Positions 12,563-30,800 of a stretch of DNA of 57,191 bases are shown one piece after another. The notes beneath the pieces are model-generated. The model did not search any database, was not told the DNA's origin, and worked only from the letters and a program-made list of their open reading frames with translations. Position numbers and translations under genes: made by a program. The stretch is from Candidatus Omnitrophota bacterium (lineage in GTDB: Bacteria > Omnitrophota > Gorgyraeia > 1-14-0-20-64-10): the NCBI GenBank assembly GCA_023248155.1, contig JAHFFE010000002.1, forward strand, positions 197,673 to 254,863, written 5' to 3'. The first letter of the stretch is position 1. The number at the start of each line of letters is the position of its first letter.

Positions 12563-14050
12563 CGCTGCCGCCAAAACAATTCCCGCCGCGACAATTCCAG
12601 ACGCCAGCCACCACGGCATTACGGCACGCGCAGGTTCTCTCGCTCCGCGCGCGTTTGCGTTGTAATAAATATAAGCCATTTCCGTTTCAGCCAGCGGCCG
12701 CAGGTGGAATGTGACGGCGGCTTGTTCCATGACCGGGTCGGCTTTGCCTTCGCGCGTTTTCAGCCAAATCACCAGTCGTGCCGGCCGGATAAGGGCATTC
12801 AACGGACGGTCGGCCATTTCGCGCAGCATCTGATTGGTGCAGGCGCGGCCGGTTAAACTGGAGAGCATCCCGCCCATGTAATTCAGATTGCAATAAATCA
12901 GTTCGTTGGGCCGCGTGTGCGCTTCAATCGTGCGGGTCAGTTCTTCGATGTAACGCGGGTGATAGAGCGATGTGGCGATCGCCGCGTGCGAATCCGTCCG
13001 GATCCCGGATAAAACAAGCGGCGTACTTTCGGCCCAGGAAATAGCCGGCCGACCATTTTTAAAAGTTACTGACGGACTGAAGATCACCAGTGCCGCCAGC
13101 AGTCCCAAAAAGATCAGGCGCGTTGTTTTTGCGCGCAATCTTTCCAGCGCGAACCCGGCCAGCATCAGCGCCGGAAAAATTCCCTGGCCGGTCCAGAACC
13201 GGTAGGGGTAAAAAAACACCATCGGAATAAAGGCGATCCAGAGCGCCGGCCATAACCGGGAAATGCCGCGCTCTTTCCAGGCCACGATTGCTCCAGCCAG
13301 ACCCAGTGCCAGCCAAACCAGCGGCAGTTCCAGCATGCGGTCCTGACCGCGCGGCTGCAGCGCGATCAATTGCCGATGTAGACCAATCTGCAGCAGCCAT
13401 GGAGCGGCCAGTAATAGGCCGAGCGCGATCGCGCCTACGGTTGTTTTCCGGTAAGCCGGTTCCACGACGGTGAATAGAACCAATCCCAATAAAAACAGCC
13501 AGGGTAGTCCCGCGTGCGACCAGAATGCCAGCCCGAGAAAAATTCCGGCCGGCACTGCTTTTTGCCGGTGCAGCGCCAGCGCCGTTCCGAGAAAAAACAC
13601 CAGTGCCAGCGTTGCCGGCGGATTATTGACGCAGGAGAGAAAAAAAGAATATGGAATTGAAACGGCCACCGCCGCCAGGACGGCCGGTTTCCATCCGCGG
13701 ATGCGCGATACCACCAGCAACAGACCGGCCAGCAGCGCCGGGAATAGGGCCCAACTCCAGAGTTTGGCCAGTGTAATCGGGTGGATGCCGGCGATCAGCC
13801 CCGGTAAAAAAAGAAGATGGAATAATGGCGGGTAAAGATGCGGGCGCCCCTGCGGAGCGCTTTCCCAGAACGCGTGCAGTGTCGGGCCTCCGGCCTGGCG
13901 GAACCCTTCAATCACCGAAAGATGGTAATAGCTGTCGAGAAAATAAGGCAGGTTGGGCCACTGCGCGGCCATCAAAATAACGGAAAATAAGAAGAGAATC
14001 AAACCGGCCAATTTCCAGGGCGATTCAATTTTCCATGAGGAATTTGTCAT
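12542..14050 (-). CDS. polytopic membrane protein, possibly a GT-C (ArnT/PMT-like) glycosyltransferase
   Basis: About 10 or more hydrophobic segments followed by a soluble C-terminal domain. I trimmed the start to ATG 14050 (MTNSSWKIE) because the track's upstream extension runs into repeat A. The 3' end overlaps smc convergently by 21 nt. Confidence 0.55.
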   Translation of the reverse strand: MTNSSWKIESPWKLAGLILFLFSVILMAAQWPNLPYFLDSYYHLSVIEGFRQAGGPTLHAFWESAPQGRPHLYPPLFHLLFLPGLIAGIHPITLAKLWSWALFPALLAGLLLVVSRIRGWKPAVLAAVAVSIPYSFFLSCVNNPPATLALVFFLGTALALHRQKAVPAGIFLGLAFWSHAGLPWLFLLGLVLFTVVEPAYRKTTVGAIALGLLLAAPWLLQIGLHRQLIALQPRGQDRMLELPLVWLALGLAGAIVAWKERGISRLWPALWIAFIPMVFFYPYRFWTGQGIFPALMLAGFALERLRAKTTRLIFLGLLAALVIFSPSVTFKNGRPAISWAESTPLVLSGIRTDSHAAIATSLYHPRYIEELTRTIEAHTRPNELIYCNLNYMGGMLSSLTGRACTNQMLREMADRPLNALIRPARLVIWLKTREGKADPVMEQAAVTFHLRPLAETEMAYIYYNANARGAREPARAVMPWWLASGIVAAGIVLAAALTVRRS

Positions 14051-14100
14051 GGTTTTATTATACTCCGGTGATTGACAAATCCGACGGGAAACGCTATTGT

Positions 14101-14382
14101 TAGAACCGGTCTCGTAAATCCCCGTGGCCGCGCTTAAGCAGAATGACAAGCCAGACAAGGCGCGAGGAGGCCGGCGGTGCCGAAGGAGCGCACCGTCAAC
14201 GACGAGCAACGAAGTATGGCGATGTCAGGCTGTTAAGCCCGAAGGGTTTCGGCGGCAGGCCATCGTCTCCTGCGGCGCTCTTCCTCGGCGGATTACTGTG
14301 AATACGCCGTCGTCATCGCTTCTTGGATCCGACGGCCTGGCGCTCGAAACGCGGCTCACGCGGATTTACGAGACCGGTTCTG
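14101..14382 (+). repeat. structured repeat family A, copy 1 (282 nt, closed by a perfect 19-bp terminal stem)
   Basis: About 94% identical without indels to 23146-23427 (hand alignment). Termini AGAACCGGTCTCGTAAATC / GATTTACGAGACCGGTTCT are exact inverted repeats. It ends 32 nt before the start codon at 14414. Confidence 0.9.
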
Positions 14383-14413
14383 TACCCGCAAGGACAACTC
14401 ACAAGGAGATTCA

Positions 14414-15817
14414 ATGTCTTTTTCCATGACGGCCGCGTCCAAAACATCGCTGTTCCGGCTCTACAATCCCGGAACCTGGGGCAACAGTTTTGCGCTGGAC
14501 GGTTTTCCGGCGCTGAAAGAGGGTAAGGCATGGCCGGTGCGGCTGGCCGAATTTATCGAGCTCAAAGGCGCCGCCTGCATGACCACCAACCAGACGCTGT
14601 TCCGGCAGCTGCTTGAGACCGGCACGCTCGATGACCGTCTGCGCGTATTTGTGCGCGAAGGCAAAACGGCGGCGCAGGTTTATCAGGCGCTTTACAATGA
14701 AGCGACCATGGAAGCAGCCCAAATTTTCTCGAGCATACACGAGCAGTGGCCGTGTGAAGGCCGCGTTTCACAGGAAGCCTCGGCGTTGTTGACTGAACTG
14801 GAACCCCTGCTCAACGAAGTCAGCCGTATTTCCGGGGCGATGGCCGGCGTAGGGGCTTTTACGAAAATTCCGAACCTGGCGGTGGGTCCACAGGCGGTCC
14901 GTCGTGCCGTCGCGACGGGGCGGATCAGCCCGAATGTGACGCTCGTTTTTTCTGACAAGCATTATCTGGACACGACCGAAGGCTATTTGCTCGGTCTCAA
15001 TGATCTGATTGAGCGGCTGCGCGGCGAGGGGATTTCCGCCGACGAGATCCGCAAAACAGCCAGCGCGATTCATTCGGTCAACTCGCTGTTTGTCAGCCGC
15101 GTCGATCGCGTGGTCGATCCCTGGATCGACGAAGCCGTTGCGCGCGAAACCGATCCGGCGAAGCAAAAAGCATTGAAGCTGCTCAAGGGCAAAGTGGCCG
15201 TGGCGCAGGCCAAAAAAGTCTACGCGTTGTTTGAAACGATTTTCCTCGGCAAACCGTTCTCCGACCCGGAAGGATTGTTCGCCGCCGAAATGCCGCGCAT
15301 CACGCGCATGAAAGAACTGTTCGCCCGTTTGAAAACGTTCGGCGCCAATCCACAGCGGCTGTTGATCGCTTCCAGCGGCGTGAAATCAGATCAGCCGTAT
15401 TCGCCGCTGCTCTATGTGCTTCCGTTTTTGGGGCCCTGGTCGGCCAACACAATGCCCGAGGCGACTTTCGAGGCGACGGTTTGTTTTGTCGCGTCATTGT
15501 CCGACGCGCAAGCGGCTGATTTGCGCGACCGCAATTTAATGGCCGAGCCGTTGCCGGAAATTCCGACCGACATTCAGCCGGCCGGAGAATGGGACCGGAT
15601 ATTACAGTTAACGCCGGCCCAGCGCGCGCAGCAGGGAATCGGCGCGCTGACAGCCGATCGGATTTTAAAACAGGCCCGGGACTGGGTGCTGACCCCGAAG
15701 AACAGTTCACTTCGCCAGATCGGCGATCAGCTGCGCGACAAAGGCGCCGAATCATTCTTTGCCGACGAGAAAGCGACTCTGCAGGCGATTGAAACCAAAT
15801 TGCAGCAGTTTCGGTAA
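14414..15817 (+). CDS. transaldolase-family protein (divergent, long form)
   Basis: [12 protein letters not shown] resembles the transaldolase SFFVSRID motif. FTKIP could carry the Schiff-base Lys. TTNQTLF stands where TSNPxIF is usual. AAGGAG lies 7 nt upstream of the ATG. Confidence 0.65.
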
Positions 15818-15826
15818 ATCCCCCCC

Positions 15827-17038
15827 ATGCTCAATTCAATACCTGAAATTCTAGACGAACTTAAATCCGGACGGATGGTCATCGTCGTTGATGACGAAGA
15901 CCGCGAGAATGAGGGCGATCTCGTTCTGGCCGCCCAGTTCGCCACGCCCGAGGCAATTAATTTTATGTCGAGCCAGGGCCGCGGCCTGGTCTGCGTTCCA
16001 ATGGAGCCGGAACGGCTTCAGGTCATGGATTTGAAACCGATGGTGATGGATAACCAAACTCCGTTGGCGACCGCATGGACCGTTTCGGTCGATGCGAAAA
16101 AAGGGGTGACCACCGGTATCTCAGCGCACGATCGCGCGAAAACAATCAGCACGCTGATTGATCCGGATGCCCGTCCGTCCGACCTGGTTCGTCCCGGCCA
16201 CACATTTCCGCTGCGCGCGCGCCACGGCGGTGTGTTGGTCCGCGCGGGGCATACCGAGGCCGCCGTCGATCTGATGCGAATGGCCGGTCTCTATCCGGCC
16301 GGCGTCATCTGTGAAATCATGAGCCCCGACGGGTCCATGGCCCGCATGCCGCAGCTGCTCGAGTTTTCAAAAAAACATCAATTGAAAATTTGCACGATCG
16401 CCGATTTGATCCGCTACCGCATGACGAAGGAGCGGTTTGTCCGGCGCGTGGCCAACACCAAACTGCCGACGCCGTACGGCGAATTTGATCTGATCGTTTA
16501 CGAATCGGACATCGACGGGCAGGCGCATATGGCGCTGGTGCTGGGGGATATCCGCCAGCCGCCGGTGCTGGTCCGCGTTCATTCGCAGTGCGTGACCGGC
16601 GACCTGTTCGGATCGTGGCGCTGTGATTGCGGTCCTCAACTGCAGGCCGCGCTCAAGCGGATCCAGCAGGAAGGCCGCGGCGTGATTCTTTATCTGCGTC
16701 AGGAAGGGCGCGGCATCGGCCTGGTCAACAAGGTGAAGGCCTACGCGCTGCAGGACCAGGGTCTCGATACGGTCCAGGCGAATGAAGCGCTTGGTTTTAA
16801 AGCCGACCTGCGCGATTACGGAATCGGCGCGCAGATTTTAGTCGATTTGGGATTGACGGAAATCCGGTTGATGACCAATAATCCGCGCAAGGTGGTGGGG
16901 CTGGAAGGGTTCGGACTGAAGCTGGCCGAGCGTGTTCCTCTGGAAATTCCGCCGACGCCGGCCAATGCGAAATATTTAAAGACCAAGCGCGAAAAACTGG
17001 GCCACATGTTACTGGAAACGCTGGACACCGATGAGTAG
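15827..17038 (+). CDS. ribBA: bifunctional 3,4-dihydroxy-2-butanone-4-phosphate synthase / GTP cyclohydrolase II
   Basis: The N-half has [14 protein letters not shown] and the C-half has [18 protein letters not shown]. Confidence 0.95.
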
Positions 17039-17447
17039 TAAATTTGCAGTGGTGTCCAGCCGTTTCAACAAAGAAATCACGCAGCGCCTTGCCGATGGCG
17101 CGGTCCGGTATCTGACCGGGCGCGGTGTGCGCGCGTCGGCGATCGACCGCCGCGAAGTTTCCGGCGCGTTTGAGCTTCCGGCCGCGGCAATGCGCCTGGC
17201 CCGCTCGCGAAAATACCGGGCGATTATCGCCGTGGGTGCTATTCTGGAAGGGGACACAAAACATTATGCGTATTTATCGCAGACAACAATGACAGGACTG
17301 ATGATGGTTTCCGTATTGACCGGCGTTCCGGTGACCTGCGGCGTGATTACCGCCAAAACCTGGAAACAGGCGCGGGCCCGTTCACTCGTCAAAGGCGTTA
17401 ACCGTGGCTGGGATGCGGCGCAGGCCGCCTGGGAGTTGGCGCAATGA
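17031..17447 (+). CDS. ribH: 6,7-dimethyl-8-ribityllumazine synthase
   Basis: Lumazine-synthase pattern SRFNKEIT...VSGAFELP...[19 protein letters not shown]. It overlaps ribBA by 8 nt. Confidence 0.9.
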
Positions 17448-17875
17448 AAGGCAAGCGGTCGCAGGCGCGCGAATCGGCGCTGAAAGCGTTGTATCAATTG
17501 GACATCACGCACGACGCTCCCGAAGAAGCGCTCCGCATTTTTTTCCGGCACCACCGCGTGCCGCCCTCGTCGCAGCCGTTTGTTTCGGGACTGGTCTGCG
17601 GTACCGTCGAGCGGATGAAAGAAATCGATACGCTGCTCTCGAAATATGCCACCAACTGGACGCTGGAACGGATGGCCATCGTCGACCGCAACATTCTGCG
17701 GCTGGGCGTTTATGAACTGTTGTACGGGCAGAAAACGCCGCCGAAGGTGGTCATCAACGAGGCCGTGGAACTGGCCAAGGGATACGGCACTTCCGATTCC
17801 GGAAAATTCGTCAACGGCGTCCTGGACGCGATTCATAAAGGACAGGCGGCCGTTTCCGAGACCTCCGAAGCTTGA
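17444..17875 (+). CDS. nusB: transcription antitermination factor NusB
   Basis: [13 protein letters not shown]...[11 protein letters not shown]...[11 protein letters not shown], 143 aa, in the classic ribH-nusB linkage. Confidence 0.9.
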
Positions 17876-18714
17876 ACGATTCCCGCTGCGTTGATCTGCA
17901 CCTGCACACCTGCCGTTCCGACGGAACTTTTACTCCGCAAGAATTAATTGAGCGGGCGCGCGCTCTCAATCTGGCGGCCATCAGTATTACCGACCATGAT
18001 ACCGTCGCTTCCGTTGCGGAGCTCGAGCAATGGCGTGTCTGGGCCGGCAGCGAGATGGAAATTATTTCCGGAATCGAACTGACGGTTTCATTCCGCAACC
18101 GCGAACTGCATTTACTCGGGTACGGTTTTTCGGTGGATGATGCGCCGCTGCTCGCGTTTCTGGAATCGGCGCATGCGCGCCGTCTTGAACGGCTGCGCGC
18201 GATGCTCGAACAGCTCCGCCAAAAAGGAGTTGTTCTTTCGTGGGATGAATTAATGGAGGTGGCTTCGGAGAGCCGTTCTCCGGGCCGTCCGCATCTGGCC
18301 GAGCTGCTGGTTCGCCGCCGCGTGGTCGGTTCGTTGAAAGAAGTTTATGACCGTTTCCTCGGAGATTCCGCTTCCTGTTTTGTCCGGATGGTCGATACGA
18401 CCGTCGAAGAAGCCTGCCGTCTGATCCGCCAGGCCGGCGGCGTTATTGTGCTGGCGCACCCGTTCCATTTGGTCCGCGATGAATGGTGTCCGGAATTGGC
18501 CGCGCAGGGTGTTCAGGGTGTGGAGGCGTACCATTCTGATCAGAGTTCTTCGGTGACGCTGTTCTACCAAAAAGTGGCCAGAGAATTAAATTGGATCGAT
18601 ACCGGCGGTTCCGACTGCCACGGATTTCGCAAGTCGAAAGGTCCGCTGATTGGAACGGTGCCGGTTCCGTACCGTTGTCTCGAAGCGATTCGTCAAGTGC
18701 AACATGCCGCATAA
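17872..18714 (+). CDS. PHP-domain phosphoesterase (TrpH/YciV-like)
   Basis: [12 protein letters not shown] and [12 protein letters not shown] metal-binding motifs, with C-terminal GGSDCHG. Confidence 0.8.
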
Positions 18715-19819
18715 CCCTGAATTGGTTTATATGAAAGAAGCGTTGCGGCTGGCCGCGAAAGCGCGCGGCAAGACTGCGCCCAATCCGATGGTCGGTGCCG
18801 TCGTTGTGAATGACGGAAAGATCGTCGGCCGTGGTTTTCACCCCAAAGCAGGGCAGCCGCATGCCGAAATTTTCGCGCTGCGCCAGGCCGGCAAAAAAGC
18901 GCGCGGCAGCACGCTGTATGTTTCGTTGGAGCCGTGCGCGCATACGGGGCGGACGCCGCCCTGTACCGATGCAATCCGCCGCGCCGGGGTTCGCCGCGTT
19001 ATTGCCGCGATGATCGATCCGAATCCCATTACGCGCGGCCGCGGTCTTGCGCAATTAAAACAGCAGGGAATTTTAACCCGGGTGGGTCTTCTAAAAAACA
19101 AAGCACAGCGCCTCAATGCCGATTTTATCCGCAGAATGAACCGGACTCGCCCCGAGGTGACGCTGAAGATCGCGCAATCACTGGATGGAAAAATCGCGAC
19201 GCGCACCGGACAGTCGCGCTGGATTACCGCTGCTCCGGCGCGGAACTGGACGCATCGGCTGCGTGCGCAGATGGATGCGATTTTAATCGGCATCGAAACC
19301 GTTTTAAAAGATGATCCGCGCCTGACCGTTCGCGGCGCGAAGTTCGGCGCGAAACCGGCGCGGATTGTTCTCGATTCCCGGCTGCGGATGCCGCTCTCCG
19401 CCCGGATGTTGAAGGATCGCGGCGGCCGCGTCTGGATTGCCGCTCTGCCGGGCGCTTCTCTGCAAAAAGAGAAACAGCTGCGCGCCGCCGGCGCCGAGAT
19501 ACTCCGCGTTCCGGCGCGACAGGGTCGGATTGACCTCACAAAATTAATGGAATTGCTGAATGCCCGCGGCATCCATCAGCTGTTGATTGAAGGCGGCGGC
19601 GAAACTGCTGCTTCGGCGCTCGATCAGAAACTGGTCGATCATCTGGTCTGGATCATTGCGCCTAAAATCATCGGCGGCCGCGCCGCGGTTCCGTCCGTCG
19701 GCGGACTCGGCGCCGCCACGCTCGAGAAAGCGGTTGTTTTACGCCGCTGGAAGATCCGTCCGCTGGGCCCGGATATTTTGGTGACAGCCGATTTCAGCGG
19801 TACAATAAGTAAGAGATGA
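18704..19819 (+). CDS. ribD: bifunctional riboflavin-biosynthesis deaminase / reductase RibD
   Basis: Deaminase zinc motifs HAEIFAL and PCAHTGRTPPC, plus a reductase C-half. I chose ATG 18704 as the start; the track's 18650 lies inside the PHP gene. Confidence 0.9.
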   Translation: MPHNPELVYMKEALRLAAKARGKTAPNPMVGAVVVNDGKIVGRGFHPKAGQPHAEIFALRQAGKKARGSTLYVSLEPCAHTGRTPPCTDAIRRAGVRRVIAAMIDPNPITRGRGLAQLKQQGILTRVGLLKNKAQRLNADFIRRMNRTRPEVTLKIAQSLDGKIATRTGQSRWITAAPARNWTHRLRAQMDAILIGIETVLKDDPRLTVRGAKFGAKPARIVLDSRLRMPLSARMLKDRGGRVWIAALPGASLQKEKQLRAAGAEILRVPARQGRIDLTKLMELLNARGIHQLLIEGGGETAASALDQKLVDHLVWIIAPKIIGGRAAVPSVGGLGAATLEKAVVLRRWKIRPLGPDILVTADFSGTISKR

Positions 19820-20709
19820 GGAATCCACGGATGAAAAACCGGTTTTGGCGATTCAGCGCTGTTGCGATCGTTGGTTTTCTCTGTTTGTCCGCTGTTCCGG
19901 CGCGTGCGGTGAATCCTGGGGCGGCAGACGCCTCCGATTCGGAACGGTTGAGAATTCTTGAAGAAAATACCCGCCGTCATATGGAAGAAACGCAGAAAAC
20001 CCTCGATGAGTTCAAGAAATCGCAGGAACTTCATCGCAAAACGCAATCCTGGGTGGATCAGATTTTCGCGTTGATCAAAGAAAAAAAATATGCCGAAGCC
20101 CGCCGCATCGTCGATCAATGGGCCAAGGAAGACCCTTCCGATACGCAGCCGTCGCTGTTGCGCAAAACGCTGATGCGTCTTGATTCCGAACCCGATGAGC
20201 AAAAGCGCCAGCAAATTTTAATGGACTACATCAACGATACGCTTTCCGGAATGAACGACTCAGTAGAAAAAATAAATTCCAATTTAGACAAGATCAACGA
20301 GAAAACGGCCGATTTTCAGCCCAAGAATGCCAATGAAGAATTGGGGCTGGCCGTCGCGTCGGGAGATAAGCCGCTGGTCCGAAAATTGCTGGCTCAGGGC
20401 GCCGATCCGAACGCGAAAGACCGATGGGGCATGATTCCGATAGAAACGGCCGCGCGCAACGGAGATGCCGAGGTGCTGCGGTGGTTCATCGAGCGGAAAG
20501 CCGATGTCAACGCAAAAGGAATGATGGGACTTACGCCGTTGATCTCCGCTGTCAGTTCCGGTTCGGAAGAAAAGGTCCGGATTCTTCTAAAAGCCGGCGC
20601 CGATCCCAACGCGAAAACCGAGACCGGAGTTACGGCGCTGAAACGGGCGCAAACGCTGGGACAGAACGCCATCGTCGAACTGCTTAGAAACGCCGGCGCG
20701 ACGGAATAA
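19816..20709 (+). CDS. exported ankyrin-repeat protein
   Basis: Signal peptide FSAVAIVGFLCLSAVPARA, a helical region, then about 4 ankyrin repeats (e.g. GMIPIETAARNGDAEVLRWFIERKADVNAK, GLTPLISAVSSGSEEKVRILLKAGADPNAK). An ATGA overlap joins it to the ribD stop. Confidence 0.8.
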   Translation: MRNPRMKNRFWRFSAVAIVGFLCLSAVPARAVNPGAADASDSERLRILEENTRRHMEETQKTLDEFKKSQELHRKTQSWVDQIFALIKEKKYAEARRIVDQWAKEDPSDTQPSLLRKTLMRLDSEPDEQKRQQILMDYINDTLSGMNDSVEKINSNLDKINEKTADFQPKNANEELGLAVASGDKPLVRKLLAQGADPNAKDRWGMIPIETAARNGDAEVLRWFIERKADVNAKGMMGLTPLISAVSSGSEEKVRILLKAGADPNAKTETGVTALKRAQTLGQNAIVELLRNAGATE

Positions 20710-20719
20710 TCGCTTCATC

Positions 20720-21295
20720 ATGTTTACCGGAATTATCCAATCGCTCGGCCGGGTTTCCTCGGCGAATAAGGGGCGATTGATCCTCGAACGGCCCTCCGGT
20801 TTTTCCGCTCTTTTATCCGGTGAAAGTATTGCCGTCAACGGCGTTTGTCTGACGCTGGAACGGGCCGATTCCAAAAAACTCTTTTTCCGATTACTGCCCG
20901 AAACGCTGCGCGCCACCACGCTGGGCCGGCTGAAACCGGGGCAGCCGGTCCACCTGGAACGGGCGCTAAAACTGGGCGATCGTCTGGGCGGGCACTGGCT
21001 TTTGGGTCATGTCGACGCGCAGGTGAAGTTGAATGCCGTCCGCTCGGCCGGCAGTTCAAAATCATTGGAAATTTCTTTTCCCGAATCGCTGCGGCCGTTT
21101 TTAGTTGCGAAAGGGCCGGTCGCGCTCGACGGCGTCAGCTTGACCGTGGGCGATTCCGTCGGAAAAAACCGATTTTCGGTCCACTTGGTGGCGCACACGC
21201 TTAAATCAACACGGCTGGGATCCAGGCGGACCGGTGATTTTTTGAATCTTGAATTGGATCTGATCGTGAAATATTTGCATGGAATACTGGCTTGA
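20720..21295 (+). CDS. ribE: riboflavin synthase (alpha chain)
   Basis: MFTGIIQSLGRV N-terminus and two lumazine-binding repeats (GESIAVNGVCLT / GPVALDGVSLTV). Confidence 0.9.
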   Translation: MFTGIIQSLGRVSSANKGRLILERPSGFSALLSGESIAVNGVCLTLERADSKKLFFRLLPETLRATTLGRLKPGQPVHLERALKLGDRLGGHWLLGHVDAQVKLNAVRSAGSSKSLEISFPESLRPFLVAKGPVALDGVSLTVGDSVGKNRFSVHLVAHTLKSTRLGSRRTGDFLNLELDLIVKYLHGILA

Positions 21296-21792
21296 AGCGT
21301 CAGCGCCTGCCGCGTTCGTGGATTGGCCTGGTGGCGCTTTTACTGGCGTTGGCCGGGCTCTGGCCTTCGGTATCGAAGCCGCAGCCCGTCGAGACGCAGC
21401 AGGCAGTCGTGCGGCGCGTCTCCGATGGAGACACCGTGGTCTTGATCGATGGCCGCCGGGTGCGGTACATTGGAATTGATACGCCGGAGCTGCACCATCC
21501 GACCAAGCCGGTCCAGTATTACGCGCGCGAGGCCGCCGAGTTCAACCGGCAGCTGGTCGAAGGAAAACAGGTCCGTATCGAATATGATCTTGAACGGAAA
21601 GACAAATACGGCCGGACATTGGCTTACCTCTATTTGCCCGACGGCACATTCGTCAACGCCGAACTGGTCCGGCAGGGGTACGCGCACACGCTGACGATTC
21701 CGCCGAACGTGCGGCACGCGGACGAATTTACGCAATTGCAGAGAGAAGCGCGTACGGCGCGCCGCGGATTATGGAACAAACAACGACAATGA
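21292..21792 (+). CDS. exported thermonuclease (SNase-fold) family protein
   Basis: N-terminal hydrophobic leader. SNase motifs VSDGDTVVL...VRYIGIDTPE...KDKYGRTLAYLYL...VNAELVRQGYA. The TTG start overlaps the ribE stop. Confidence 0.85.
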   Translation: MKRQRLPRSWIGLVALLLALAGLWPSVSKPQPVETQQAVVRRVSDGDTVVLIDGRRVRYIGIDTPELHHPTKPVQYYAREAAEFNRQLVEGKQVRIEYDLERKDKYGRTLAYLYLPDGTFVNAELVRQGYAHTLTIPPNVRHADEFTQLQREARTARRGLWNKQRQ

Positions 21793-23021
21793 ATAAAAAA
21801 ATTGCAGCGCTGATCATGGGGTATGGAATTCTCGCGGCCGGGCTGACCGGGTGCGTGAAGCGCGTCATTTTAATCGACTCCAAGCCGCCCGGCGCCGGCG
21901 TCTGGATCAATGAGCATTATGTCGGCAAGACGCCGGTTTCGCACGAATTCATCACGCACGGCCGGTATAAATTCCGCCTGGAAAAAACCGGTTTTCGCGA
22001 ACTGACCGCGCGCGAAATGATTAAGGCGCCGGTTTACGAATGGATTCCGTTCGATTTCTTTTTTGAGAACCTGATTCCGACGAAACTTGAAGAGAAACAT
22101 GCATTCCAATACGCGCTGGTTCCTCAGCCGCCGGCAGAATTGCTGGAGCCTGACACCGGTAAAGATCCCGCTCCGTGGGTGGCGCAATTGTCCGACGCGC
22201 GGCCGGCACTCCGCCGTGAGGCGGCTGTCGCGCTGGCCCGTTTGCGTGCGCCCTCCAGCGTTCCGGCTCTTGAGAAATCGACGCACGATGCAGAATCTTC
22301 CGTCCGAATCGCGGCAGTGGCCGCTTATCGGGCCGTGGCCGGGCCCAAGGCCGCTCCCCGCTTAATCGAGATGCTCGCCGCCGATCCTGATGCCGAGGTA
22401 CGTTGGCAGGCCGCCGCGCAGCTGGAAGCGCTCAAAGAACGGTCCACCGTTCCCGCGTTAATCGCCGCGCTCAATGATCATTCCGGCTTGGTGAGGGTTG
22501 GGGCGGTGGAAGCGCTCACGGCCATCGGCGACCCGGCCGCCGTTGAACCGCTGATCAAAACGCTCGCGGACAAAGATACGTCAGTTCGCCGTTCCTCCAC
22601 GATGGGATTGGGAAAACTGGGCGACCGCAGGGCCGTTCCTGGTTTGAAAACAGTTTTATTCCGCCATGATTTTGAGACGCGCCGCCGCGCCGTTAAATCG
22701 CTGGCGCGGCTGAAAGATCCGTCCTGCACGATCGCGCTGGTGCGCACTTTCGCCGACTACGATCCGGAAGTCCGCCAGAATGCCACCGACGCGTTGATCG
22801 AGTTCGGCGACCGTTCCCAAGCGGTGCCTCTGCTGATTCGCTATCTCCGTTCATGGCAGCCGGTCACGCGTCAACATGCGGCGATTGTATTGGGCGCCAT
22901 GAAAGATCCGCGCGCGCTGGCGCCGCTGCGCCGGCAGGTGGTCCGCGAATCCAACGAGGCTACCCGCGTTGCGATGGCCGAAGCGATCCGCCAGATCGAC
23001 GCCTCAGCCCACTCAACCTAG
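21789..23021 (+). CDS. lipoprotein with a PEGA-like N-domain and HEAT (PBS-lyase-type) repeats
   Basis: Lipobox LTGC. PEGA-like segment IDSKPPGAGVWINEHYVGKTP. There are at least 6 repeats of the form D.D..VR..AA.AL. An ATGA overlap joins it to the nuclease stop. Confidence 0.7.
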   Translation: MNKKIAALIMGYGILAAGLTGCVKRVILIDSKPPGAGVWINEHYVGKTPVSHEFITHGRYKFRLEKTGFRELTAREMIKAPVYEWIPFDFFFENLIPTKLEEKHAFQYALVPQPPAELLEPDTGKDPAPWVAQLSDARPALRREAAVALARLRAPSSVPALEKSTHDAESSVRIAAVAAYRAVAGPKAAPRLIEMLAADPDAEVRWQAAAQLEALKERSTVPALIAALNDHSGLVRVGAVEALTAIGDPAAVEPLIKTLADKDTSVRRSSTMGLGKLGDRRAVPGLKTVLFRHDFETRRRAVKSLARLKDPSCTIALVRTFADYDPEVRQNATDALIEFGDRSQAVPLLIRYLRSWQPVTRQHAAIVLGAMKDPRALAPLRRQVVRESNEATRVAMAEAIRQIDASAHST

Positions 23022-23061
23022 ACCGTCTAAACGCTATCTGATACAATACGGGTTCTATCTT

Positions 23062-23139
23062 CGGGGCGTGGCTCAGTTTGGCTAGAGCGCTGCGTTCGGG
23101 ACGCAGAGGTCGGAGGTTCAAATCCTCCCGCCCCGACCA
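23062..23139 (+). tRNA. tRNA-Pro (anticodon CGG), CCA encoded
   Basis: Hand-folded cloverleaf. Acceptor stem is CGGGGCG/CGCCCCG. Anticodon arm is CTGCG-TTCGGGA-CGCAG. T-arm is GGAGG-TTCAAAT-CCTCC. Discriminator is A, followed by CCA. Confidence 0.9.
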
Positions 23140-23145
23140 TTTCAC

Positions 23146-23427
23146 TAGAACCGGTCTCATAAATTCCCGTGGCCGCGCTTAAGCAGAATGACGAGCCAGA
23201 CAAGGCGCGAGGAGGCCGGCGGTGCCGAAGGAGAGCACCGTCAACGACGAGCAACGCCGTATGGCGAAGTCAGTCTGTTAAGCCCGGAGGGTTTCGGCGG
23301 CAGGCCGCCGTCTCCGTCGGCGCTCTTCCTCGGCGGATTACTGTGAATACGCCGTCGTCATCGCTTCTTGGATCCGATGGCCTGGCGCTCGAAACGCGGC
23401 TTACGCGAATTTATGAGACCGGTTCTA
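23146..23427 (+). repeat. structured repeat family A, copy 2 (282 nt)
   Basis: Begins 7 nt after tRNA-Pro and ends 16 nt before the sodC ATG. Termini AGAACCGGTCTCATAAATT / AATTTATGAGACCGGTTCT are again a perfect 19-bp inverted repeat. Confidence 0.9.
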
Positions 23428-23443
23428 ATCGGAGGGTCTTTCC

Positions 23444-23971
23444 ATGAAAAAAACGGCGTTCATTCTGGCACTCCTCGTGGCGTTCTCCGTTGGAACTGCA
23501 TCTGCCGCTCAAACGCGTATCAAGCCGGCCAAAGCCGTTTTAATCAACGCGCAGGGCGAGCCGGTCGGCTGGGCCACGCTGACGGAAGTTCCGGGCCGCG
23601 GCGTGCGCGTTCAACTGAAGGTGTCGAACCTTTCCTCCGGACGCCACGCGTTCCATATTCATGATGTCGGCAAGGCCGATGCCCCCGATTTCAAATCGGC
23701 CGGCGGACATTTCAATCCGCAGCACAAACAGCATGGACATAAGAACCCGGCCGGAGCGCATGCCGGAGATTTGCCGAACCTTTTAGTCGGTAAAGATGGA
23801 AAAGGCCGCGCCGATATCGTCGTTTCCGGCGTAACGCTGGGCGAAGGGGAAAACTCGCTGTTTCATGCGGGCGGGACCTCGTTGGTGGTTCATGCATCCG
23901 AAGACGATCAGAGAACCGATCCGTCTGGAAATGCCGGAGCCCGTGTCGCCTGCGGAGTAATTGAACGGTAG
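23444..23971 (+). CDS. sodC: periplasmic Cu/Zn superoxide dismutase
   Basis: Signal peptide, then metal-ligand contexts FHIHDVG, GGHFNPQHKQHGH, GDLPNL and LVVHASEDD, ending in ARVACGVI. Confidence 0.9.
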   Translation: MKKTAFILALLVAFSVGTASAAQTRIKPAKAVLINAQGEPVGWATLTEVPGRGVRVQLKVSNLSSGRHAFHIHDVGKADAPDFKSAGGHFNPQHKQHGHKNPAGAHAGDLPNLLVGKDGKGRADIVVSGVTLGEGENSLFHAGGTSLVVHASEDDQRTDPSGNAGARVACGVIER

Positions 23972-23973
23972 GC

Positions 23974-26288
<2,315 letters not shown>

Positions 26289-27864: not shown

Positions 27865-30800
27865 TTGTACCGCTTTTTTGCGGGCTTAATAATCCTTTCG
27901 CTAATCCTGCCGCCGCAGTCTGCCTGGGCTCTCCGCGCGGTCTCTGCGAAAGAATCGGCCGGCCTGAAACAGCTCGCCTCCGGATTGGAGGAGAGGATTG
28001 GTTCTCCGGATTCCGACGCTACTGATGCCGAGTTGCTTCGTCAGCTGGATAGTCATCCTCAAACGGATTCCGCCGGACATCCTTACATGAAGACCCTCAC
28101 AGATTTCCATTCGGCTGTGGCGGAACCGCTGTTGAAAAGAAACTCAGGTTTAACAGATTTAGACCGGGACCGCCTGATAAAAACGGTTCTGCCGGGGTTC
28201 AGAGGAGAGATCCGGTTGTTTGATTTAAGTTTTCTGGTGGTTCCCGTCCGCCTGAACACCGATGGATCGATTGACATCGCGCGCCAGGTTCTTGAGCAGG
28301 CGCCGGCCGATCTGTTAATCAATCTGTTTACAAGCTACGACACGGCGGCGCTTCTGCGCTGGGCGGAAATAAACTTGAAGCAAGTGACGCCGTCACCGGC
28401 CATCGGCCGTTTGGAGCGGTTTGTCGCCGGAGGCGCCGATCGCCAAGCAAAGAAAAAAAAGACAAGCCGTCCTTCGGAACCAAAATCCCGGCCGGCGGAT
28501 ACGCTTCCCGCGGCGGAGCAGTTGACTACGGATCTTTTCCTGGGAGATGGGGTAGATTTGGCGGATACGCTTTCCTCCGCCACGCTGGAACTCGGTTTGC
28601 AAGCGCTGCTAAGAGATTCTGATTTGCCGGAACCGCCGCCCGCCGCGGCGGCCGAGCCGGCGTTGCCGCCGCCGGTACCCGGGACGGTGATCAGTTCCTC
28701 TGGACAATTAAAAACGGAAATGGCGCGCCGCGTCCGGGATCTCCATGCCGGAATAATCCCGGACAATATGGTGGTAATGACCGGCAACGGTTTCGACCAG
28801 GACCAGATCAAAATCTCTGTTGGCGCTTTGCCGGGCGCGCCTATTCAGACCGAGGTATTGATTCTTCCGGGACTTTCTCAGCCGGGCGTGTTCCTGCCCG
28901 ACCCTAGAACCGGTTCCGCTTCATCCCTCCCATACCGGATTGTCTGGGATCCGAAGCCTGTTCTGGAGGCATTGAGAAAGAACGTTGTTTTAGAGGAAAT
29001 GAGGGGAATGATGCGGGGGGATATTCAGAGAGCGCAGGACAGCATGCCCTGGCTGAATCGGCTTCTCGATACCGCCGAGCGGCTGTTGGCCGATCAGGGT
29101 GAAGAAGCCCGGATTCAGAACGCCAGAGCGGCTCAGCCGAAGATCGATCAACTGCTGAAAGTTGTTTCGGAAAAAGAAGAGGAGTTTTATCGGCTCTACG
29201 GCCGGTTATCGAGCGTGCTGATCGAGCTGAAAGAACAGGCCGATGAAAATGGCGAAATCCCAAGTGAGTTGGCCCAGGCCCGTTTACAGGAGTTGGCCAC
29301 GCTGTTTTCGGCTTACCCGCGGGCCGAGTACGGCATTCTGGATATTGTCCGGACACTGCCGCAGCAAGATGCCGTATCGCTCCGCGATATTGAAAATGCG
29401 CTGTCGGGCACGAAGGTATTTCTTCAGCGGAATCATAAACAGGAGATTTCCGGCCAGCTTCCCGCCGAAATCATCCTGAATTTTTACCACGACGCGAAAC
29501 GGATTGCGAACAGGCGTTATCTTCAGCAATTGAAACTCCGTTTTCAAGCCGCCGGCGAGGACCCCTCCGACTCCGACCGGGAAGCTGTTTCTCAATTCGC
29601 GTTGGCGGTTTTGTCGGAGGAGACCGGCCATCTGATTTCTAATTGGATATCGAGCAGCCAGGATCGCGCAGGATCGCCGGCCCACCCTCTGCCGGTTTCC
29701 GTGCTGGGCGTGGGGTTTCTCAACGCTCAAAACCAGATGCGATTTATTCCGGGCGGGTTAGTGGAGTACGACATTCCGGCGCAAAGAGAGTTCCATTGGT
29801 CGGCGGACCGGGTTCTTCCCTCCTATCAGGCCGGCGACCGGATCGTGCTGATGCTTCCTTCGCATACCGGCGGGCTGACCCAGAATCAGTTCCACGCGTT
29901 CTTTGAGGGTTGGTTTTACCTGATGAACGAGAATCCGGAGATTCCCGAAATTCTGCTGGCGATCGCCGAAGAAGACGGATCGATCCGTTTGTTACGGCCG
30001 CGCATTCCCGAGCGAGGCAAAGAGGCCTGGGCCACCTTGGCCCGTATTTCAAATGAAATCAACGCCTGTTATCAAACTTCCGCGGAATGGATCAGCCGGA
30101 TGAAAAGTTCCGGATCGAATGCCTGGCTGGTTAACAACATGCGCGCGGCCGGCTCTCTTTTGTCGGTTGCCCAGAAGGCGCAGTCAAGCGATATGTCCGG
30201 AAGAGAATGGTGGATTCGCCGGTTCCGGGTCTCGGAACTCTTTCTCGCTGAGGTTTCTTCTCTTTTTGGGCCGGATGCCGCAGAGGCCGTCAGGGAACAG
30301 TGGAAGGCCGATCCTCGGCACGCAAAAACATTAGAAGATTTGCGTGACCGGCTTAACCTTCCGGATATCGAACAGAAAAGGCCCAGAGAAGTTGCCGCGA
30401 TTCGCCAGCGGGTCAGTTACATCGGCCGAACACCGGAAGATCTCGGTTATGTTTTCGCACCGTTGATTGATTTGGCGGTGGCCGTTGTTGAGGAACGGCA
30501 GGGGGTCGACCTGTTGAACACCCCCTGGATGTTTGAAGAGGTTCCGCTGTTTCCGAATGAGCCGAAACCGGAACAAAAGAAAAAAGATTGGTTTGCCGAA
30601 ACCTGGGCTCTATGGAAGAAAGAAGACCGGTTTCGAAAAAATCCAAGATTTGGCAAGGCAGAAGATGCCGAGCCATTTGCCCGAACCTGGGTGGCGGAGC
30701 GGGTCGCCAAAGCGGTTGATGGGAAAGATCCTGAATTTAAATGGATCGATTTTTCCAAAGCGCTGGAAGCCCACCGGAAGCAGGAGGCCCGGCGCCGGGA

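Follow-up and report, generated by a model that had tools for sequence, protein, structure and literature searches.

Probable IS402-type MITE copies with a conserved Y-shaped fold precede sodC and a transaldolase-like/rib operon in an Omnitrophota genome

The two structured repeats that precede a transaldolase-like/rib operon (c1) and sodC (c2) in a stretch of 57,191 nucleotides from a Candidatus Omnitrophota bacterium, referred to here as the window, are very probably copies of a non-coding MITE of IS402 type and not a redox-sensing RNA. The terminal inverted repeats (TIRs) of the element appear to belong to the type found on small IS5-family insertion sequences, which are 800-930 bp long with two overlapping transposase ORFs (IS402/IS427 type). 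A transposase of this type, acting in trans, would cut at the GA(G/A)C...G(C/T)TC ends and insert the element at T(A/T)A, duplicating this 3-bp triplet. The TAA and TTA triplets that can be hit harmlessly in compact GC-rich genomes would be mostly stop codons, so that copies would come to sit on the stops of upstream genes, where the insertion would re-create TAG (flank TA plus the first G of the element) or keep TAA. The 240-nt core, which is not of insertion sequence origin, folds with the paired ends to give a long closing stem topped by two long hairpin arms. Copies are probably co-transcribed with their neighbours, and the fold may have a role at the RNA level. The compact 30-bp stem would then join the upstream stop to the downstream start, limit polarity and be a likely RNase III substrate.

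The two window copies and their family

The two repeats (window 14101-14382 and 23146-23427) have the same orientation and align without indels at 94% identity with 17-18 differences, as the original prediction had described. The ends of each copy form 20-21 perfect pairs, longer than the 19 bp first given, and about 30 bp in all past one bulge. The differences in the left arm (G/A and C/T) are mirrored in the right arm (C/T and G/A) at pairs 14/276 and 20/270, just as had been claimed. Three inner changes had also been read as G-C to G-U conversions; two of them fall on pairs of the consensus fold (26/264 and 167/238), whereas the third (CCGAA to CCGGA) sits in the mini-hairpin loop and is unpaired in that fold. 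The plus strand folds at -149.8 kcal/mol (z -8.5 against shuffles) and the minus strand nearly equally at -147.6 kcal/mol (z -8.0). The pairing and the likeness of both copies are real and far beyond chance, and the claim of a strong structure with compensatory changes is borne out.

Both copies are 278 bp long and lie on the plus strand. Copy c1 (14103..14380, core GAACC...GGTTC) is a member of a 13-copy family and has a divergent gene on one side and the transaldolase-like/rib operon on the other, and copy c2 (23148..23425) lies between tRNA-Pro and sodC. The left TIR of c1, GAACCGGTCTCGTAAATCC (14103..14121, plus strand), is of IS402 type and forms the outer part of the closing stem P1 with the right TIR, GGATTTACGAGACCGGTTC (14362..14380, plus strand). 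The corresponding TIRs of c2 are GAACCGGTCTCATAAATTC (23148..23166, plus strand) and GAATTTATGAGACCGGTTC (23407..23425, plus strand). The target-site duplication of c1 is represented by the left flank TTA (14100..14102), and its right copy (14381-14383) has degenerated to TGT. Copy c2 is flanked by CTA on the left (23145..23147) and TAA on the right (23426-23428), which have TA in common, and the family consensus is TWA...TWA. Three parts on the plus strand make up the Y-shaped core. Arm A of c1 (14132..14238; 23177-23283 in c2) contains helices 2-6, which show covariation, and is a hairpin with the purine-rich internal loops GCGAGGAGG and GACGACGAGCAACG. It is followed by the junction mini-hairpin CCCGAAGGG (14239..14245; 23284-23290 in c2), which reads CCCTTCGGG in other genera, and by arm B (14246..14350; 23291-23395 in c2), a hairpin with pyrimidine-rich internal loops that contains helices 8-11.

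A sigma-70-like promoter called by consensus match only (TTGACA-17-TATTGT, 10/12; 14072..14100, plus strand) lies directly before c1, and its -10 box ends exactly at the insertion point. By this arrangement, the insertion of c1 appears to have separated the -10 box from the original transcription start, and c1 would be the leader of the transaldolase-like/rib operon, since the promoter abuts it. Copy c2 begins 8 nt downstream of tRNA-Pro(CGG) (23062..23139, plus strand), which has a promoter-like site upstream (23019-23047), and no terminator was found between this tRNA gene and c2 or onward to sodC. The transcribed-leader position given in the original prediction agrees with these predicted signals. 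The next genes, both on the plus strand, start 33 nt after c1 (transaldolase-like gene, 14414..15817, PF00923) and 18 nt after c2 (Cu/Zn superoxide dismutase gene sodC, 23444..23971, PF00080). Elsewhere in the window, TAGAACCGGTTCCGCTTCATCC (28905-28925) carries a 13-mer that resembles a terminus, and no right end to match it lies within 2 kb; it is either a solo remnant or a chance match.

Further copies were collected by BLAST, nhmmer and pattern scans. The window's own genome (G000), a MAG of 1.9 Mb in 37 contigs, contains 13 full copies, 12 of which are at 86-94% identity. The thirteenth full-length copy is more diverged (C24:161674-161951). The copy near ilvB is a diverged member of the MITE family. 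The family is found in 12 of the 22 genomes of the order, with 1-13 copies each at 66-89% identity, and many copies in the relatives lie at contig ends. The pattern scan of named genomes gave repeated matches only in Candidatus Omnitrophota MAGs. A pattern with 22 specified bases gave many chance matches in high-GC genomes, and a 31-base pattern gave 23 clean metagenome loci. From G000, its relatives and metagenome contigs, 49 distinct full-length copies of 276-283 bp were assembled. No conserved reading frame was found in these copies. A coding element was rejected, since no frame is open throughout (the best frame is open in 26 of the 49 copies) and the length differences are not multiples of 3.

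No orthologous insertion sites were found among the genomes of the order, and the flanking genes differ between genomes. Two related metagenome contigs carry copies in opposite orientation 33 nt apart in the same intergenic region (L194:876-1153 and L196:534-813), which indicates repeated independent insertion into one region. The c2 insertion is present in all other assemblies with an identical SodC, and no empty site at the c2 locus was found among them. Three of four independent contigs at this locus (L228-L231) terminate inside c2. The repeat thus breaks short-read assemblies, and copy numbers from MAGs are underestimates. The genes that follow the copies in G000 are transaldolase-like, sodC, folE, a TPR membrane protein gene, lysC, an M28-like peptidase gene, gspE, a redoxin gene, mgtE and a hypothetical gene. 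These genes are unrelated and do not form a regulon.

Solo-end remnants are also present in G000. One left end (C24:142585-142620) reads TA|GAACCGGTTCCAACAATCCCCGTGGCCGC|TAA directly before an ispD-like start, and another (C24:168659-168680), TAGAACCGGTCCCCTAAA, lies before a Shine-Dalgarno sequence. These remnants indicate that copies decay by internal deletion. At C20:212536-212549 of G000, the perfect palindrome TAGAACCGGTTCTA is identical to the outermost 7-mers from the two ends of the element fused at ACCGGT. A deletion or excision may have left it as a footprint, a reading that is uncertain because the upstream ORF reads through the palindrome.

Element ends, target-site duplication and parent insertion sequences

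The first four bases are GA(G/A)C and the last four G(C/T)TC in all 49 copies, and the triplet immediately outside is mostly T(A/T)A on each side. Both flanks are TAA or TTA in 20 copies, comprising 11 TAA/TAA pairs, 8 TTA/TTA pairs and 1 inverted pair. The ratio of 19 direct to 1 inverted flank pairs (binomial estimate of about 2e-5) indicates a genuine 3-bp target-site duplication, since a mere extension of the palindrome would give inverted flanks. The first base of the left duplication copy has been less well preserved, and it usually serves as third position in the final sense codon of the gene upstream. The original prediction had offered a mobile MITE-like hairpin as an alternative and had named numerous copies with target-site duplications as its mark; this alternative is the one that the copies support.

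In the outer stem formed by the TIRs (columns 1-20 with 275-294), pairing reaches 98.6% across 31 copies. Compensatory changes in the closing stem would largely follow from the need of both ends to stay matched inverted repeats for the transposase.

The order was searched for Pfam DDE_Tnp_1 (PF01609) to find the parent insertion sequence. Small IS5-family elements were identified in G018, a genome of the same family as G000, and two of them are described here. The element at L209:906-1784 (879 bp) has the ends GAGCCCATTTCAAAACC and TTA/TTA flanks, and the element at L217:50-846 (797 bp) has the ends GAGCTCATTTCACAAC and TAA/TAA flanks. Both look intact and have GAGC... inverted repeats and two overlapping ORFs, a layout that has been reported for IS427-group IS5 elements (PMC3281130). 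Their transposase ORFs match NCBIfam transpos_IS5_3 and Pfam DUF4096 plus DDE_Tnp_1. Both elements are candidate mobilisers of the MITE. A phylum-wide search identified two more Omnitrophota insertion sequences with the ends GAAGCGGTTTCATAAGT and GAAGTTATCCCATAAATTC (GAAG..TCATAA), which resemble the GAACCGGTCTCATAAAT ends of the G000 subfamily. The nearest annotated relatives of the Omnitrophota insertion sequences are IS402-family transposases, and an IS402 copy on a Burkholderia plasmid, 914 bp long, is flanked by a TAA/TAA duplication and has the ends GAGACGGTTTCAAAAAG.

Over the outer 17-20 bp of the closing stem, 14-15 of 17 positions agree with IS402-type TIRs, a score that none of 2000 shuffles reaches, and unrelated insertion sequence ends from the same order match the MITE ends at a mean of 3.6-6.6 of 17. 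Beyond the TIR, no similarity was found between the element core and the interiors of the insertion sequences. The element is therefore highly likely to be a MITE of IS402/IS427 type with a core of separate origin.

No PF01609 or IS402-like transposase match was found in G000, which is weak evidence of absence because the assembly is a MAG. The presence of DDE_Tnp_1 (PF01609) does not track the element across the 22 genomes, and MAGs usually lose insertion sequence copies. Either the G000 copies are now stranded or the insertion sequence was lost in assembly and binning. The search of G000 for a longer element with the same ends gave only a 397-bp non-coding element and solo ends, with no transposase. 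A regex search for a small GIY-YIG ORF likewise gave no relevant match. This 397-bp element (C20:362289-362685) has inverted ends of 23-26 bp that start with GAGCCGGCCCGGGCATTCAAC. It has the GAGCC terminus as in the MITE and a different interior, and it may represent another family that uses the same transposase type.

Conserved fold, placement beside genes and rival explanations

The consensus fold was obtained with RNAalifold from 31 copies of 8 genomes. It consists of four parts: the closing stem (about 30 bp), a pair of long arms and the mini-hairpin. Among 2850 cells, 97.5% are paired, compared with 85.2% after shuffling and 31-38% with slid partners. Changes on both sides are found in 56 of 92 pairs, and none of 500 shuffles reaches any of these measures. 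The 240-nt core, unrelated to insertion sequences, is conserved across genera at 70-77% identity. Its conservation exceeds that of the TIRs, and strong covariation is seen in its internal helices. The outer stem varies almost only by full Watson-Crick swaps; in the inner stem and the arms the sequence is kept, with some G.U pairs. The interiors of the arms are conserved yet pair poorly; there, arm A has runs rich in purines and arm B has runs rich in pyrimidines. These internal loops (alignment A5, columns 57-72, 103-116, 186-197 and 219-231) show 3-nt periodicity, and their runs are GAGGAGGAGG and GACGACGAGC in arm A and CTCCTCCTCG and CGTCGTCGTCG in arm B. The runs of arm A are complementary to those of arm B, so an alternative pairing between the arms or a pseudoknot is possible.

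Inherited and private substitutions show different patterns. On the plus strand, G.U occurs in 68 cells and A.C in 30, with three sites carrying much of the excess. Variants common to many copies include only G.U, at three pairs, and no persistent A.C. Private substitutions are equally frequent in paired and unpaired columns, with 11 G.U against 10 A.C, and this lack of stem depletion and of G.U bias is what DNA copies in neutral decay are expected to show. Roughly half of the private stem changes have a compensating change in the copy that carries them, and the closing stem is complementary even where positions vary freely among copies. In our reading, recent changes are neutral decay, and pairing is restored or selected in the lineages that are still transposing. 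The compensated private stem changes need either selection for pairing or templated correction. Quasi-palindrome template switching can correct the arms of a hairpin. For the pairing of the core, either the folded single strand may matter or such template switching may correct the arms.

The placement of the copies was assessed with gene starts and stops taken from crude ORFs. In 21 of the 49 copies, an upstream ORF in the same direction terminates between -1 and +5 nt from the element's 5' end, compared with only 5 copies in which a gene reads likewise into the 3' end (p 0.0025). The commonest stop-codon junctions are TAG, formed by the flank TA and the first G of the element, and a TAA that abuts the element. 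This stop-codon placement is explained by the TWA target in GC-rich, tightly packed genomes. Both neighbours are in the sense orientation in 20 copies and antisense in 7 (p 0.019). This orientation bias is not explained by TWA targeting, since the target and the ends are symmetric. It must have its basis in strand-specific selection or in a replication-linked bias that is inseparable here from gene direction. In 6 of the 6 copies followed by a downstream start within 6 nt, the final 13 nt of the element include a Shine-Dalgarno-like run, as do those of only 6 of the 17 other copies (p 0.014). The run beside near starts fits a stem that keeps the stop and the start adjacent for coupling.

The strong conservation and covariation of the core are not required of a passive MITE and stand against a plain one. 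There is an outside chance that the Y-core is an RNA device under selection, through which the transposon does no harm within operons. The closing stem would put the upstream stop against the downstream start, and the ribosome that terminates there would open 12-13 bp at the outer end of the stem, which would release the Shine-Dalgarno-like run in the 3' arm. Translational coupling would in this way survive the 280-nt insertion, and the folded arms would block Rho loading. Such an intercistronic adaptor would account for the bias towards sense, for the position on stop codons and for the way the core covaries. Another proposal, that the element is a portable intercistronic or leader RNA module that the host selects and that spread or was retained for its RNA action, is improbable. 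In that proposal, the 30-bp stem would hold the stop near the start, a terminating ribosome would open the outer stem and so uncover the run in the 3' arm, and the Y-core would shield the untranslated RNA against Rho or nucleases or serve as a protein-binding site. The conserved, paired fold, the identity of the core across genera, the bias towards sense and stop-codon positions, the Shine-Dalgarno-like run and the inherited G.U pairs all speak for it. However, the insertion sites are not conserved between genera and the downstream genes are unrelated, the private changes show neither stem depletion nor a preference of G.U over A.C, three sites supply a large part of the G.U excess, folding of the minus strand is nearly as good, and the remnants show that copies are lost.

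The fold and its covariation would also suit a REP/REPIN or IS200/IS605-type hairpin element of single-strand DNA, whose Y1 (HUH) transposase would recognise the strand in its folded form. The lagging-strand template would then be the source of the orientation bias, which would match the replication direction if genes are co-oriented with the fork. Elements moved by Y1 transposases have neither target-site duplications nor TIRs and use a fixed 5' target motif, whereas this element has a 3-bp TWA duplication and TIRs of 17-20 bp that match DDE-type IS402-like ends, which makes a Y1 origin very improbable. Least credible of all is the redox or oxidative-stress riboswitch-like leader proposed in the original prediction, which would control the pentose-phosphate/riboflavin operon together with sodC. 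The element does occupy the leader of both window genes, and one more copy precedes the redoxin gene. Those two window loci are only 2 of the 13 full copies in G000, and another ten are antisense or stand before folE, lysC, gspE, mgtE and further genes. The gene association is not conserved in the relatives, an Rfam scan of window positions 13000-25000 with E up to 1 matched only the tRNA, and the element has target-site duplications and insertion sequence-type ends. The list of unrelated downstream genes refutes shared redox control. The MITE of IS402 type is the reading that we retain.

Significance and comparison with known systems

No paper that links Omnitrophota with MITEs was found in our literature search. 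The copies described here form an undescribed Omnitrophota repeat family that, judged by its ends and duplication, is now assigned by parent insertion sequence type to IS5 of the IS402/IS427 type. New in this work are the statistics of the 3-bp duplication, the IS5/IS402 parent type, the membership of the ilvB copy and the substitution analysis, and a false riboswitch or sRNA candidate is removed. The family also has practical consequences because it breaks assemblies, misleads gene callers and makes new stop codons, and its copies occupy operon junctions of essential genes. If the fold is an RNA adaptor that preserves operon expression, the family would represent a mobile element evolving towards host neutrality, and the RNA-device reading, if true, would make it a transposon that carries its own intercistronic adaptor.

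The closest likeness is to IS402 and the small IS5-family insertion sequences (IS427 type, transpos_IS5_3). The MITE TIR GAGCCGGTTTCAAAACC resembles both the IS402 ends and those of the Omnitrophota insertion sequences, and the 3-bp TAA/TTA target duplication is common to insertion sequences and MITE. Unlike those insertion sequences, the MITE has no transposase gene, is 278 bp long instead of 800-930 bp, and has an unrelated interior with a conserved Y-shaped fold. This conserved, branched core is the unusual feature of the element, and its position on upstream stops and its sense bias are also somewhat out of the ordinary.

The Correia elements (NEMIS) of Neisseria are likewise short, non-coding, bounded by TIRs, adjacent to genes and flanked by a TA-containing duplication. 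Bacterial MITEs have been reported to form stable transcript folds that RNase III cleaves at the TIRs, and Correia elements are co-transcribed with their TIR hairpin cut by this enzyme (PMC10969869). Correia elements differ in their length of 100-155 bp, their 2-bp TA duplication and their transposase, whereas the Omnitrophota family is larger, with a 3-bp TWA duplication and IS402-type ends, and its helix of about 30 bp is a predicted RNase III substrate. ERIC sequences are also imperfect palindromes in transcribed intergenic regions, and their RNA fold is conserved. This fold can alter mRNA stability (PMC10969869). ERIC sequences are about 127 bp long and have no identified parent insertion sequence, in contrast to the clear parent type and duplication found here.

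Tourist-type MITEs of eukaryotes, which belong to PIF/Harbinger, have a 3-bp TWA (TAA/TTA) duplication, and the DDE transposase of PIF/Harbinger is related to IS5. The Omnitrophota element is similar to them in both the duplication and the transposase type. It differs in its hosts and TIR sequences, and we know of no conserved branched core in Tourist MITEs. RUP of Streptococcus pneumoniae, a MITE that depends on IS630-Spn1, is also non-autonomous, bounded by TIRs and flanked by a TA-containing duplication. IS630 duplicates TA only, unlike the 3-bp direct repeat of the Omnitrophota MITE, which is found in 19 of the 20 informative copies. Parentage of the IS630/TA type was rejected, since this repeat and the match to IS402-type TIRs indicate that the parent family is IS5 and not IS630.
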